From NCBI GenBank assembly GCA_910577845.1, contig CAJTNA010000004.1:15280-79279 (forward strand): DNA of 64,000 nt, read 5' to 3'. The notes below the pieces were generated by a model that was not told the origin of the DNA, did no database searches, and saw only the letters and a program-made list of their open reading frames with translations. Of this stretch, positions 2,341-44,926 are shown piece after piece (within the stretch, counting starts at the first letter, position 1; every line of letters begins with the position of its first letter). The DNA is from an uncultured Christensenella sp. Lineage in GTDB: Bacteria; Bacillota; Clostridia; Christensenellales; UBA3700. Both the position numbers and the translations under genes were made by a program.

Positions 2341-2616
2341 TTTGTATAAAACATTTTTAATTAAAAAATCTTTTAAGTTAAATTTTATTGTATTTTTATA
2401 TAATGTCAAACTTACGTGTTTTTGTTAAGCAATTGTTATTTTTATAGTGAATGGTGAAGTAAGTATATTTAAAGTTGAAAAAACAACTTTTATATTAAGC
2501 CAACTATTGGCTTAATTAATTGTAAATTAGTGGCATAAACCAACAAGGCAAAATGATAAATTTTACCTTGTTTAGTTATTTGTAAAGTTAAGATTTAGTA
2601 AAAAGTCGAATTTTTG

Positions 2617-2648: not shown

Positions 2649-2679
2649 GATAAATGTGCTAAATTATGTAAATTGAGGG

Positions 2680-2702
2680 TACATAGAATACATATATCTA
2701 TG
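2680..2702. repeat. left arm of a perfect 23-bp inverted repeat (candidate inverton boundary)
   Basis: TACATAGAATACATATATCTATG. The exact reverse complement lies at 2833-2855. Confidence 0.9.
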
Positions 2703-2718
2703 TACATATTATATGAAT

Positions 2719-2748
2719 ATTATCTAATTAAATATATACATTTGTCAA
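2719..2748 (-). promoter_or_regulatory. sigma-A-like promoter inside the IR-bracketed segment, pointing away from the 2879 gene
   Basis: On the minus strand: TTGACA (complement of 2743-2748), an 18-nt spacer, then GATAAT (complement of 2719-2724). Confidence 0.55.
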
Positions 2749-2832
2749 GTATAAGCTAAACAATTTGTAAAATGATAACATTAAATTGACTTTAGCTTTA
2801 CAAAAACATAGCCGAAAAGCCTAATTTATGTG

Positions 2833-2855
2833 CATAGATATATGTATTCTATGTA
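2833..2855. repeat. right arm of the perfect 23-bp inverted repeat
   Basis: CATAGATATATGTATTCTATGTA, the reverse complement of 2680-2702. It ends 8 nt before the AGGAGG RBS of the 2879 gene. Confidence 0.9.
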
Positions 2856-2878
2856 TCTAAAAATAGGAGGTTTTTGCT

Positions 2879-4687
2879 ATGAAAATTAGTTTGAAAAAGG
2901 TTGGAATAATTGTTTTATGTATAGCCTTTTTTAGTCTTACAATTTATTGTTTAAATTTTAGCGGTTTGTCATTAGTTGTGTTTGATAATAACAATATAAA
3001 AACTGAATTAAATATAAGCAACACAAATGATATTGGCAAGTTGCCAGTTGCAGAACAAGAAGTAACGTTGACTTGCGATTGTCCTAATGGTGAGGCTTGT
3101 ACTTGTGGTAAAATGGCACAAGATTGGTCTAAAGCTGTAACAGAATCAGTAACCTCAAAACAAGTTGTGAAAGTTACTTTGGGAAGAGATTGGATAGCAC
3201 AAATTGATGAGGACACTCACAATAGTTTTTCTAATATGGGAAATTATGGTTTTGCAAATGGTAGAATAAATATAGATTATGGAGCAATTATTATTTTAGA
3301 TTTAGCTGGGTATTCTATTGATAGACAACTGACTATTGAACAAAAGTCAGAATATGGAAATGTTATAAGAGTAGCTGGTACATTAAATTTAATTGATAGT
3401 AGCTATAATGAAGAGCAAGTAAAAGAATATTATGAACAAGGAAAAATTTTGGAATATGAGTGCGGTAAGATAACTGGTGGCTCTCGTGACCATAATACCT
3501 GGGGTGGTGGCGGTATACTTATTGAACAAACAACTGGTGTATTAAATATGTATAGTGGAATGGTTACAAATAACTATTCTCGCATTGGCGGTGCTGGAAT
3601 CTTTTCATATGTTTATTCTAAAATGAATATTTATGGTGGAATAATTTGTTCAAACTCTTCTGAAAATGGTGGCGGAATTTATTGCTCAAGTGGTAGTGAA
3701 CTAAATATTAATGGTGGTTATATCATTGATAATACAGCAAGTAAATGTGGTAGTGCAATCTCAGTATATAGTGCTAAAGCAAATTTGACAAATTGTATTA
3801 TTGAGGATAATGCTATTGAGCAAAATGGCGGTACAGTAAATGCTACTGGAAATTCTAAATTGCAATTATATAGTGGGGTAAAATTTAAAAATAATTTATC
3901 AAATGGCAATATTAATGATATTTATCTGCATAATAATTGCAAAATAGAGTTAAAGGAAAATATTAGCAATTATGATATGTTATCAGTAGATTTTGGTAAC
4001 GGGTATAATTTGTTTGCACCATTTACTTTTGGTTACAAGTATTATGCTAATGGTGATAACAATCCACAAAATCATTTTGTACTATCATCAGATAATAGTA
4101 AAAAAGCTGTGCTATATGGTGATGAAGTTCGATTTGATTATTCAATAAATAGTGAGTATGACTTTGCTTATATTGAAAATTCTGTTCGTAAATATTACCA
4201 AGATAATGATAGATTACACGATTATAATGATACTACAAATTATGTGCTAGCTAAAATCACCCCAAATACCTCTATAAATGAGTTTATTAGTAATATTAAG
4301 GCGTTTAATTTAGGGGATGTAACATTATATGATAATAAGGATAATATTGTTTATCAAAATGGAAATGCAGTTAATGTTGAACTAAGCAATAACGGAATGG
4401 AGCTTGCTGTTGGAACTGGTTGGTATATAAATTGTCAAAATGGAGGTAAAGCTGAAAGAATTTATTTGTCTGTTTTAGGGGACTTAACTGGTGATGGAAA
4501 AGTTAATTCAGCAGACGTAAATTATTTAAGACAAATCATAAATGATAATACTATTTTTGAAAACTCTAGCTTGGCAGTTAAGTTGAGTATGATTATAAGT
4601 AACAAAGGTAACGCAATAGAAAAAGCAGATGCAGAGATATTGTGGAATGTAGCTTGTGGCAGAATAGATATATCAGATTTTATTTGA
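2879..4687 (+). CDS. secreted/anchored parallel beta-helix repeat protein with a C-terminal dockerin-like module
   Basis: AGGAGG RBS and an N-terminal hydrophobic signal/anchor (IIVLCIAFFSLTIYCL). Cys-rich motif CDCPNGEACTCG. Repeated GGG(I/L)/GGAGI/NGGGIY beta-helix-type repeats. GDLTGDGKVNSADVNYLRQII is a dockerin/EF-hand-like Ca-binding repeat; the second repeat is degenerate. Confidence 0.8.
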   Translation: MKISLKKVGIIVLCIAFFSLTIYCLNFSGLSLVVFDNNNIKTELNISNTNDIGKLPVAEQEVTLTCDCPNGEACTCGKMAQDWSKAVTESVTSKQVVKVTLGRDWIAQIDEDTHNSFSNMGNYGFANGRINIDYGAIIILDLAGYSIDRQLTIEQKSEYGNVIRVAGTLNLIDSSYNEEQVKEYYEQGKILEYECGKITGGSRDHNTWGGGGILIEQTTGVLNMYSGMVTNNYSRIGGAGIFSYVYSKMNIYGGIICSNSSENGGGIYCSSGSELNINGGYIIDNTASKCGSAISVYSAKANLTNCIIEDNAIEQNGGTVNATGNSKLQLYSGVKFKNNLSNGNINDIYLHNNCKIELKENISNYDMLSVDFGNGYNLFAPFTFGYKYYANGDNNPQNHFVLSSDNSKKAVLYGDEVRFDYSINSEYDFAYIENSVRKYYQDNDRLHDYNDTTNYVLAKITPNTSINEFISNIKAFNLGDVTLYDNKDNIVYQNGNAVNVELSNNGMELAVGTGWYINCQNGGKAERIYLSVLGDLTGDGKVNSADVNYLRQIINDNTIFENSSLAVKLSMIISNKGNAIEKADAEILWNVACGRIDISDFI

Positions 4688-42082: not shown

Positions 42083-42111
42083 AGTTCTAATAAATTACTT
42101 TGGAGATAATT

Positions 42112-43362
42112 ATGGATAGAGATTTATTATATAGAGTTAAAGAGGTATTTTTTAGAGAGCAACCTATACAAGACGCTATAGATATTTTAAATGAAAATAT
42201 TGATAAAATAGATTTTGATGATGAGGATGATGTTAAAGAGATAAATGAACTTGTTCGCTCCTCACTAACTTTTAATGAAAAGAATGATGATGGTATCGAA
42301 TTAGTTAAATTTTTAATATCAAAAGGCTATGATATTAATTTTAAGTTTTCCAAAAAAGAGTGCCTTATACTTAACCTTGCAGAATCAACAATAAGACCTG
42401 CATTATTTCAACAACTAATTGATTTAGGTGCGGATGTATATTCTGAAACTACAATTGGCGGTAATGTGCTTACACGTTCAGCTGAAAAAGTTGTAGATAC
42501 TTGGGGAATGCGAGACAAGGATATCAATGAAAGATTACCTATTTACATTGCGGAAAATTTTGATTTGTCACAATTAGACCATCCAAGTGAAACAGGTATT
42601 ACACCTTTGATGTATGCAATAATGAAAAATAAAATGAACTTAGCTAAAAAACTTATTTCGCTTGGTTCAGATGTAAATATGACTGGTGGTCAAGCACAAG
42701 GCGGATATAGTTATTGGATGAATATCTATGGTGTGTCACCACTTGCAATAGCTTGTCGTGAGGGCAACTTAGAGGCTGCAAAATTGCTTATTGAGGCTGG
42801 GGCAGATGACACTTTGTGTGATGCTGATGGTACCCCAACAATGTTTGCACTTTTGTATAATACATTCAGATACAACGAAATGGTTGTGCCTATGCAAATT
42901 GAGATTGGGAAAAGAAAGGGTGAAATTGTTAAATTGCTTAAGGACCCAAACTTTACTGATTCTCAAGGTAACACTTTGCTTATGAAATCAATGTGGAGAT
43001 ATGGTTATTCTAAAGATAAGCAAATTTCACCATTCAATAATGAGGAGATTATGAGAGCCTTGTTAGAGCGTGGTGTAAATGTTAATGTATCTAACAACCT
43101 TGGTAAAACTGCATTGCATTATTCTGCAGAGTATTTTGATTGTATGGTAAAGGAATTGATAGTAGCTGGTGCGGATATCAATGCACAAGATAACCAAGGC
43201 AATACTGCATTAATCATTACTTGTAAAAATCGTAGTGAAAAGATTGCAAAACTGCTTTTGCGTAAAGGTGCAGATTTTAACATTAAAAATGCTGACGGAA
43301 AGTCTGCTATGGACATTGTTGCAGAAAATGGTTTGACAGATGTGCTTGAGCTAATGATATAG
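42112..43362 (+). CDS. ankyrin-repeat protein
   Basis: Multiple ANK repeats (GITPLMYAIMKNKMNLAKKLISLGSDVN, VSPLAIACREGNLEAAKLLIEAGAD, GKTALHYSAE, GNTALIITCKNRSEKIAKLLLRKGADFN). No signal peptide. ATG at 42112, after GGAG. Confidence 0.85.
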   Translation: MDRDLLYRVKEVFFREQPIQDAIDILNENIDKIDFDDEDDVKEINELVRSSLTFNEKNDDGIELVKFLISKGYDINFKFSKKECLILNLAESTIRPALFQQLIDLGADVYSETTIGGNVLTRSAEKVVDTWGMRDKDINERLPIYIAENFDLSQLDHPSETGITPLMYAIMKNKMNLAKKLISLGSDVNMTGGQAQGGYSYWMNIYGVSPLAIACREGNLEAAKLLIEAGADDTLCDADGTPTMFALLYNTFRYNEMVVPMQIEIGKRKGEIVKLLKDPNFTDSQGNTLLMKSMWRYGYSKDKQISPFNNEEIMRALLERGVNVNVSNNLGKTALHYSAEYFDCMVKELIVAGADINAQDNQGNTALIITCKNRSEKIAKLLLRKGADFNIKNADGKSAMDIVAENGLTDVLELMI

Positions 43363-43945: not shown

Positions 43946-44926
43946 ATGCAACTGGATAATATGCTTTTACAAGCTTGTAAAAATAATCAAAAAACTGTTG
44001 TTCAAATGTTTTTAAAACGTGGTGACATTAATGTGAACAAACGTGACGAATCGGGTAATACACCTTTGATATACTCTTGTATGAAAAACGCAAGGGAACT
44101 TGTCAAAATGCTACTTGATAGCGGTGCTGATGCGAATTTGTCAAATGTCGCAACTCGATACCCACTGCACTTTGCTGCTCAAACGGGTAATTATGAAATT
44201 TTATCTTTATTAGTAGGTGCTGGTGCAGATGTAAACTGCACAGATAAAGAGGGTGTAACACCTCTAATGTTACTTGCACAAAACGGAAAGACAGACACTG
44301 CTTTAAAATTTTTAAAGTTTGACGGTGTTGATGTATCTTTAAAAGATAATAACAATAATAAGGCAATTGATTACGCAACTGTTGCAGGCTTGAGGGAATT
44401 GGTTAAAGCATTGTCTAGTAATATTGAGGAGCATACAGATGCAAATGGCAATACTACTTTGCACCACGCTTGTTGGAATGACCAAGTTGAAGTTGTTAAG
44501 GTGCTTGTTGACAATGGTGCAGAGGTTGATAAGGTTAATGATGATGGAGAAACTGCATTGTTCCTTGCAGTTCGTAGAGCTAACCTTGTTACTACAGAAA
44601 AGCTACTTTCAGCTGGTGCAAAAACAGATATTTCTAATCTTGATGGCGTAATGCCTATACATATTGCGGCGGATAGTGGTGAGCAATTTATTGGTGTTGC
44701 GTTGATTAATGCTGGTGCAGATATAAATGCAAAAACTTCTGATGGTTACACCTCACTTATTTTGGCGGCACGTAATGGTAGAAATGACTTTACAGCAATG
44801 CTTATTGAAAAAGGTGCAGATGTAAATGCAGTTGATAATGAACAACATAGTGCATTGTACTATGCATCTGAGGCTGGATTCACTGAAATTGTGGAACAAC
44901 TTTTAATGGCTGGTGCAATGAACTGA
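43946..44926 (+). CDS. ankyrin-repeat protein (about 9 repeats)
   Basis: Near-consensus ANK repeats along the whole protein (GNTPLIYSCMKNARELVKMLLDSGADAN, YPLHFAAQTGNYEILSLLVGAGADVN and others). Confidence 0.9.
   Translation: MQLDNMLLQACKNNQKTVVQMFLKRGDINVNKRDESGNTPLIYSCMKNARELVKMLLDSGADANLSNVATRYPLHFAAQTGNYEILSLLVGAGADVNCTDKEGVTPLMLLAQNGKTDTALKFLKFDGVDVSLKDNNNNKAIDYATVAGLRELVKALSSNIEEHTDANGNTTLHHACWNDQVEVVKVLVDNGAEVDKVNDDGETALFLAVRRANLVTTEKLLSAGAKTDISNLDGVMPIHIAADSGEQFIGVALINAGADINAKTSDGYTSLILAARNGRNDFTAMLIEKGADVNAVDNEQHSALYYASEAGFTEIVEQLLMAGAMN

Follow-up and report, generated by a model that had tools for sequence, protein, structure and literature searches.

The control of many genes by separate promoter switches is a strategy well documented in Bacteroides and in mycoplasmas. 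In Mycoplasma penetrans, the mpl family comprises 38 lipoprotein genes at several loci, most of which are thought to be switched independently by adjacent invertible promoters, and candidate tyrosine recombinases are encoded nearby (Horino et al. 2003, as described in PMC2268961). Seven switches have been described in Clostridioides difficile, and among them the pdcB switch is a 174-bp segment with 19-bp repeats and an internal promoter, which is OFF in the reference genome and has a second start 26 nt outside the left repeat (PMC9286219). Large surveys have found invertons in many phyla, including Firmicutes in human metagenomes (PMC11602134), and a literature text search returned no paper linking invertons with Christensenellales. 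Here we describe a stretch of 64,000 nt (the window) from contig CAJTNA010000004.1 of an uncultured Christensenella sp., in which a unit made of two inverted repeats and an internal promoter (2679–2856) lies just upstream of a gene for a repeat-rich surface protein (2879–4687).

We propose that this unit is probably one of a family of invertible-promoter cassettes (invertons), each controlling one paralogous surface-protein gene. Inverted repeats bound the segment, and the promoter inside it lies beside a gene that it could drive after inversion. Moreover, the repeat is found at many loci of one genome, with its copies upstream of a gene family for surface components. A more complete picture, to which we give an even chance, is that of a mycoplasma-style system in a walled gut Firmicute, in which a single unlinked recombinase, probably Xer-like, serves at least 17 independently switchable genes for repeat-rich lipoproteins, each behind an identical 178-bp cassette with dif-like 27-bp dyads. 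We infer the inversion itself, the recombinase class and the assignment of the ON and OFF states. The earlier note on this DNA had described a single-locus switch like that of cwpV; what was found instead is one unit of a multi-locus family. The features of the unit and of its surroundings, in window coordinates, are:

2490–2516, plus strand: first upstream hairpin (AAGCCAA...TTGGCTT), fold of −10.1 kcal/mol, z −3.25, with an equivalent in paralogous cassettes
2538–2577, plus strand: second upstream hairpin, followed by a T-rich TTTGTAAAG block, fold of −10.5 kcal/mol, z −2.9
2616–2648, no strand assigned: terminator-like hairpin and U run (fold of 2616–2647, −16.9 kcal/mol, z −4.3)
2667–2672, plus strand: TGTAAA motif, at a constant 6 nt outside the distal arm in every cassette class (invariant alignment columns T33–A38)
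2679–2705, no strand assigned: distal (left) arm, a perfect 27-bp dyad GTACATAGA-ATACATATA-TCTATGTAC, with 0 mismatches to the dyad pattern
2706–2829, no strand assigned: segment of 124 bp between the dyad sites, the proposed invertible DNA, which carries the promoter
2719–2748, minus strand: sigma-70-type promoter TTGACA-18-GATAAT, 11/12 match, facing away from the gene as assembled
2830–2856, no strand assigned: proximal (right) arm, GTGCATAGA-TATATGTAT-TCTATGTAT, the inverted dyad site, with 2 mismatches
2865–2870, plus strand: AGGAGG ribosome-binding site (RBS), 8 nt before the ATG, conserved in all cassettes
2879–4687, plus strand: the gene proposed to be controlled, 602 amino acids (aa), with a signal peptide, GGxGG-rich beta-strand repeats and a weak C-terminal dockerin-like motif

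In its logic, the closest analogue would be the mpl (P35) family of M. penetrans. Both are large paralogous families of surface lipoproteins at several loci, with a promoter segment and inverted repeats before each gene; most copies would be OFF at once, and recombinases acting in trans on many loci are proposed here as well. On the other hand, the host is a walled gut Firmicute and not a mollicute, the proteins and the repeat sequence are unrelated, and the arms are longer, being 27-bp dyads here and 12-bp repeats around approximately 135 bp in M. penetrans. Inversion was shown experimentally in that species, whereas the cassettes described here were read from assemblies, in one orientation. 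The polysaccharide invertons of Bacteroides fragilis (the Mpi system) are similar in having one repeat consensus at many loci and promoters on segments of 150–200 bp and, by our proposal, in the independent switching by a recombinase encoded elsewhere, with surface variation in a gut commensal. They belong to another phylum, their repeat core is unrelated, and their targets are polysaccharide operons and not single protein genes. Mpi is a serine invertase with a short repeat core, whereas the 9-9-9 dyad layout of the present sites would better fit a tyrosine recombinase. The C. difficile switches (cwpV, flgB, cmrRST and pdcB) are also Firmicute segments of approximately 150–200 bp, with repeats of approximately 20 bp, upstream of surface or signalling genes, and the pdcB and cmr switches have an internal promoter, whereas cwpV and flgB act after transcription initiation and not through such a promoter. 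The seven switches of that species are unrelated and single-copy, with different repeats, while here one cassette is repeated at least 17 times before paralogues. No RecV homologue was found here, no search for one having been made.

The repeat search returned arms of 29 nt (2680–2708 and 2827–2855), 28/29 (97%) complementary and 118 nt apart. The earlier note had reported their 23-nt core (2680–2702 and 2833–2855) as exact reverse complements, and all 23 of the 23 positions do pair. The core occurs only at these two sites in the window, even with 3 mismatches allowed, and in 0/100 shuffles at the same tolerance. A better description of the arms is as a pair of 27-bp dyad sites, 2679–2705 and 2830–2856, each of them an internal dyad of 9-9-9 layout, GTACATAGA-N9-TCTATGTAC; by chance, 0.04 matches to this pattern with up to 3 mismatches are expected. 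The gap between the 23-nt core and the AGGAGG, given before as 8 nt, is 9 nt (2856–2864).

The proximal 9-nt spacer is the exact reverse complement of the distal one, and this asymmetric spacer is opposite in orientation between the arms of every cassette. When the arms of 12 distinct cassettes were compared, the inner half-site TCTATGTAC was invariant except for one base in the window-type proximal arm (GTGCATAGA), while the outer half-site was degenerate (TACATARA). In the diverged cassettes L022 and L027 the spacer has C changed to A in both arms, and the interior length is 123–124 in all cassette classes. To judge from sequence, paired inverted half-sites around a short asymmetric centre are the core-site layout for a recombinase dimer, and since the centres are opposite in the two arms, the outcome of recombination would be inversion. 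The dif site of Bacillus subtilis is ACTTCCTAGAA-TATATA-TTATGTAAACT (PMC3025954). Like the core sites of Xer/dif, the present sites have two inverted half-sites around a short asymmetric centre, and in our own comparison with B. subtilis dif, its XerC and XerD arms are matched at approximately 7/11 each by the half-sites CATAGAA and TATGTA. They differ from dif in a half-site core spacing 3 nt longer and in their occurrence as inverted pairs at many loci, dif being found once, at the terminus. The resemblance may be taken as a lead to the recombinase class, not as a test of it.

Two samples hold both the diverged class of cassette (spacer ATAAATATA) and the window-type class (spacer ATACATATA), at similar coverage: L022 against L029 and L033 in ERZ13657766 (62, 68 and 79x), and L023 against L035 in ERZ13657781 (5 and 7x). 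The two classes may share one genome, in which case the spacer difference could block recombination between them.

In a scan covering one genome per species, the exact 23-mer was found at 17 sites on 16 contigs, all of them in the single metagenome-assembled genome (MAG) MGBC120187, labelled 'uncultured Christensenella sp.'. Sixteen of these sites adjoin AAATAGGAGG, an ATG and the signal peptide of a paralogue, always in the same relative orientation, and the remaining one (L007) corresponds, in MGBC120187, to the distal arm of the window. Among the MAG copies the arm stays exact, whereas the 5 nt that separate it from the RBS vary. Where contigs are long enough (L004, L006, L010, L012, L014 and L017) the whole unit is present, in the order of two upstream hairpins, the terminator hairpin, approximately 35 nt, the distal arm, the interior with its outward promoter, the proximal arm and the RBS.

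The cassette is also present at every fetched homologue locus that reaches far enough upstream of the gene: those of P0003 (38% identical; L022 and L023), P0004 (39%; L024 and L025), P0005 (L026), P0006 (L029) and P0007 (32% identical; L027 and L028). L025 is a second cassette from the window's own sample. The contig with P0008 (L030) starts at the RBS, and P0009, considered as a further homologue, proved unrelated. Across the diverged cassettes the arms, the promoter and the RBS are conserved far better than the neighbouring spacers, which indicates, from the comparison of sequences, continuing selection on the parts of the putative switch. A scan of viral contigs for the dyad gave one match, unrelated and inside a phage gene. 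As a side observation, a Spo0A paralogue (receiver and Spo0A_C domains, 266–267 aa) neighbours the family gene at both L005 and L015 of MGBC120187, so this genome has at least two Spo0A-like genes, both beside members of the surface-protein family.

The internal promoter, with TTGACA at 2748..2743 and GATAAT at 2724..2719 of the minus strand, agrees with what had been described from the letters alone, namely a minus-strand promoter facing away from the gene. In all, the window has just 12 matches of at least 11/12 on its two strands, several of them directly before genes (1477 before gene 1521, 5877 before 5941, 34304 before 34339, 46995 before 47049 and 48022 before 48096), and a match of this quality occurs in only 2% of interior shuffles. 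Weaker promoter-like matches are no commoner here than in shuffles (8 found, 9.1 expected). The promoter is kept in the diverged cassettes as TTGACT-18-TATAAT (L022) and TTGACA-18-TATAAT (L027), whose genes are 32–38% identical; the sequence of the promoter spacer has changed, while its length stays at 18 nt and the promoter keeps its place with respect to the distal arm. A forward promoter between the hairpin and the distal arm was considered and discarded: it scores 9/12 in the window, and neither hexamer is conserved across cassette classes, the candidate −10 (TGTAAAnn) being without its final T in L022 and L027 and the −35 being variable.

Upstream of the distal arm, folding bears out the terminator-like hairpin that the earlier note had placed there. 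Its stem has one bulged base and it is absent from the output of a simple terminator scan. In the alignments, its 3′ half, CGGGGGTA (2635–2642), is invariant in all cassettes; CGGGGGTA is kept in L022 and L027 too, where no hairpin partner is visible by eye, these regions having been judged without folding. The second upstream hairpin is kept among the paralogous MAG copies though the stems differ (caacactctaaaag... and caacaaggcaaaat...). The TGTAAA motif is a candidate accessory or regulator site; it does not qualify as a conserved sigma-70 −10, since L022 and L027 lack the final T. TTGTAAA-like motifs recur upstream (at approximately 2580) and inside the interior (at approximately 2765), and together with CGGGGGTA and TGTAAA they could be sites for an accessory protein or a regulator. 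The T run between the AGGAGG and the ATG (2871–2875) has the length T5 in the window, against T4 in other strains (L045–L047), which alters the spacing from RBS to start by 1 nt.

The following mechanism is proposed. A site-specific recombinase encoded in trans, probably of the tyrosine type to judge from the site layout, would bind each 27-bp dyad as a dimer through the half-sites GTACATAGA and TCTATGTAC. Strand exchange between the two sites would invert the 124-bp segment, because the 9-nt central regions are asymmetric and opposite in the two sites. In the assembled orientation, taken as OFF, the strong internal promoter would fire outward from a start predicted near 2712 on the minus strand, through the distal arm and into the terminator hairpin some 70–100 nt away, and the upstream hairpins would stop read-through into the cassette. 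In folding, this transcript is an RNA of approximately 70–100 nt made of the distal-arm hairpin and the terminator (z −4.9).

In the ON orientation the promoter would lie at 2787–2816 of the plus strand, with the start near 2823 and a leader of 56 nt that would open with the dyad hairpin of the proximal arm and leave the RBS free. The earlier note had placed the inverted −10 at approximately 2811–2816, and mirror arithmetic gives the same position. Inversion in silico puts the start 55–56 nt before the ATG in all three cassette classes, with the Shine–Dalgarno sequence (SD) largely unpaired. The predicted ON junction reads ...GATAATATTCATATAATAT-[arm]-TCTAAAAATAGGAGG, or in longer form ...TTAGATAATATTCATATAATAT + GTACATAGATATATGTATTCTATGTA + TCTAAAAATAGGAGG, and the reciprocal junction on the distal side would read ...AAATTGAGG + GTACATAGAATACATATATCTATG(C/T)AC + ATAAATTAGGCTTTTCGG. 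As at least 17 cassettes of a close relative share these sites, one recombinase could switch each gene independently, which would give combinatorial surface variation.

In the assembled orientation, the interior segment beside the proximal arm can also pair with the SD and the AUG, through different sequences in the three classes. The folds place these segments as follows:

window 2807–2822, pairing with 2865–2881
L022 3934–3944
L027 2934–2947

A translational lock of the OFF state by such anti-SD pairing was considered and rejected, as the window copy pairs no better than shuffles (48/200, not significant); the diverged copies are marginal (6–10/200).

The gene proposed to be controlled belongs to a family that is rare in public data, with only approximately 10 proteins matching full-length or strongly. 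Its members are conserved at the two ends, in an N-terminal signal peptide that mostly includes a lipobox-like ...IGC and in a C-terminal LGDLTGDGKVNSADVNYLRQ motif, and diverge in the mature part, where GGxGG-type repeats occur; the complete MAG copies are open frames of 600–950 aa in 11/11 cases. That the product is a secreted or lipid-anchored repeat protein can safely be said, while the identity as a beta-helix/dockerin protein, proposed before, is plausible only. The Dockerin_1 match covers half a domain and stays below the Pfam cut-off (18.6 bits against 22.9), although a dockerin match at E up to 0.01 was obtained in 7/13 paralogues, the best at 5.9e-05. Concerning a right-handed beta-helix fold, the AlphaFold2 (AF2) model has a pLDDT of 66 and shows regular short strands across residues 130–440, and Foldseek gave no match at E below 0.3, in a list mostly of beta-helix enzymes, tailspikes and autotransporters. 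One paralogue matches the Chlam_PMP repeat.

In several other assemblies (L042, L045) the 602-aa gene is split into 104 and 498 aa by a 1-nt deletion at window 3190–3195 (codon ~105), GG to G and not in a long homopolymer, in DNA otherwise 99.8% identical. The split form is a pseudogene allele of one family member. A conserved signal peptide, divergent mature parts and a strain-specific frameshift in one copy are typical of contingency gene families.

Several results weigh against an invertible promoter. In all fetched DNA, a script found 33/33 gene-proximal arms with an OFF-type interior (approximately 22 loci in 12 assemblies), the opposite orientation being found in 0/33 of these arms in the 12 consensus assemblies; at least 6 independent assemblies have the window's own locus in the OFF state. 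For the earlier note, a single orientation in deep read data would have spoken against a switch, and the single orientation seen here, at the level of assemblies and not of reads, leans that way. The ON/OFF switch that it proposed has on its side a cassette conserved before paralogous surface genes, recombinase-type dyads and a conserved promoter, and against it a second orientation that was never seen. Consensus assemblies show only the majority orientation and hide minority ones, and a consensus that is all OFF is compatible with a strongly OFF-biased or one-of-many expression; if few of at least 17 loci are ON in any one cell, an all-OFF consensus is what one would expect. It is equally expected from a fixed element that does not invert, which lowers our confidence.

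The ON-junction pattern had 0 matches among the metagenome contigs of the JGI, a collection without the organism and hence uninformative on this point, and the general arm pattern had only two matches there, both in unrelated AT-rich sequences. Further points on the same side are that the presumed crossover spacer is heterologous in the distal arms of L004 and L027, which would hinder a tyrosine recombinase, and that both the class of the recombinase and the position of the crossover have been guessed from site geometry. No site-specific recombinase is encoded in the 57 open reading frames (ORFs) of at least 120 aa in the window, as had been anticipated, and no obvious one appeared in the flanks fetched for the other cassettes, a check in which three ORFs were scanned and most were assessed from the N-terminus only. 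Contig ends in or beside the cassette (L002, L021, L046–48 and many MAG contigs) were considered as a sign of mixed orientation and rejected as such: the breaks need no inversion, because they fall where paralogous copies begin to share k-mers.

The uniform orientation would suit a fixed regulatory module, in which the 27-bp dyads are operators of a dimeric regulator that may loop the 151 bp from centre to centre, an outward RNA of approximately 100 nt is made constitutively from the internal promoter, and the gene uses another promoter, controlled by the regulator. Palindromic sites are also typical of repressor operators, the outward transcript folds as a compact 5′ hairpin and terminator (z −4.9), and the conserved CGGGGGTA and TGTAAA outside the distal arm could be regulator sites. 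Nevertheless, a symmetric operator gives no reason for an inverted asymmetric spacer that changes in both arms together, the gene has no conserved forward promoter (the −10 TGTAAAnn loses its final T in two classes, and the −35 is variable), the stretch from the distal arm to the hairpin is poorly conserved, unlike a functional small RNA, and no Rfam family matches; we consider this explanation unlikely. The same absence of ON copies could mean that the cassettes are former invertons now locked, with the recombinase lost or the sites decayed, the copies frozen OFF and the genes silent or decaying. The frameshift in the window gene of several strains, the spacer heterologies of some cassettes and the lack of a recombinase nearby agree with such a fate, while most family genes are intact and long (600–950 aa in the 11/11 complete MAG copies) and the arms, promoter and RBS are conserved far better than the neighbouring spacers, which makes it quite unlikely.

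The repeats might instead work at the RNA level: if a forward transcript began just before the distal arm, the two arms would pair into a 27–32-bp leader stem, which could serve for processing by RNase III or for stabilising the 5′ end and would compete with an anti-SD pairing. The plus-strand leader does fold into a 32-bp stem (−58 kcal/mol, z −6.1), pairing is possible for 95% of arm cells, the stretch from hairpin to distal arm contains a weak promoter-like site (9/12), and as assembled the interior can pair with SD and AUG. Covariation is not above controls or shuffles, though, with 18/27 pairs that never vary and a single pair changed on both sides, and in 8/12 cassettes position 53/218 forms a non-standard pair (an A–C mismatch in the plus-strand RNA). 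An RNA stem needs no palindromic arms and leaves the internal dyad of each arm unexplained, and the strong antisense promoter, conserved as it is, is not accounted for either. Conservation is not seen for the forward promoter, a terminator immediately upstream speaks against longer transcripts, the sequestration of SD and AUG is no better than shuffles in the window copy and marginal in the diverged ones, and no relevant Rfam match to the cassette was found at E up to 1. We hold such a leader stem to be very unlikely.

A miniature inverted-repeat transposable element (MITE), or an insertion sequence remnant with terminal inverted repeats, inserted upstream of the gene is extremely improbable. 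It would account for terminal inverted repeats of 27–29 bp on a unit of approximately 178 bp with many copies per genome, at which assemblies break, and many genomic copies were indeed among the signs of a MITE named in the earlier note. The outer flanks, however, are conserved among copies over at least 110 nt upstream, including the three hairpins, and downstream over the RBS and the signal-peptide codons; every copy has the same position and orientation relative to one gene family; target-site duplications are absent, as are copies in unrelated contexts and further copies in the window. A MITE was therefore rejected on the conserved flanks, the constant gene context and the absence of target-site duplication: with both flanks conserved and the same gene beside every copy, the multi-copy spread is that of a gene family with its control region, and not of transposition.

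The window is chromosomal DNA of a low-GC Firmicute (28–36% GC), and the ENA contig ERZ13405019 NODE_284 is identical to it across the compared stretches. The host is an uncultured low-GC gut Firmicute, and its closest MAG is the one labelled 'uncultured Christensenella sp.'. On the 3′ side of the 2879 gene follow a helix-turn-helix gene, ctsR, an ORF of 166 aa, mcsB and a clpC-type ATPase gene; the 166-aa ORF is unannotated and occupies the place expected for mcsA, between ctsR and mcsB. Further downstream are ribosomal, isoprenoid, ruvABC and shikimate genes. Other observations were made in the window. A second strong promoter-like site (2382–2409, minus strand, TTGACA-16-TAAAAT, 11/12) lies in the long intergenic region and faces the end of a GNAT gene, with no obvious gene beyond except an ORF of 50 aa (2257–2409). 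The window starts inside a gene (1–687) for a protein of approximately 760 aa without a Pfam family on record, and the ORF at 67–687, an internal fragment of this protein, has only a weak HEPN_AbiV match (E 0.003). Two adjacent genes for ankyrin-repeat proteins of 420 and 326 aa lie at 42100–43362 and 43946–44926 (Pfam E down to 1e-60), with an ORF of 151 aa without any Pfam match between them.

If inversion were refuted, the unit would still be a striking conserved regulatory module, with paired palindromes, an outward promoter and triple hairpins. If, on the other hand, the cassettes do invert, an uncultured lineage of gut commensals varies a surface-protein family by means of a large and uniform set of promoter switches, with more than 100,000 possible surface states. 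No multi-gene family of protein-coding loci comparable to it is known to us from Clostridia, and the set would be a large inverton regulon of protein genes under a single recombinase in that group. It would also lend itself naturally as a model of how a chromosome with approximately 34 identical sites escapes scrambling by a single recombinase, and the 27-bp dyad sites are a defined substrate for finding the enzyme responsible. Because uniform cassettes give exact ON and OFF junctions, any metagenome with the organism in it allows such junctions to be counted, and the dynamics of its surface states within the host would become measurable.

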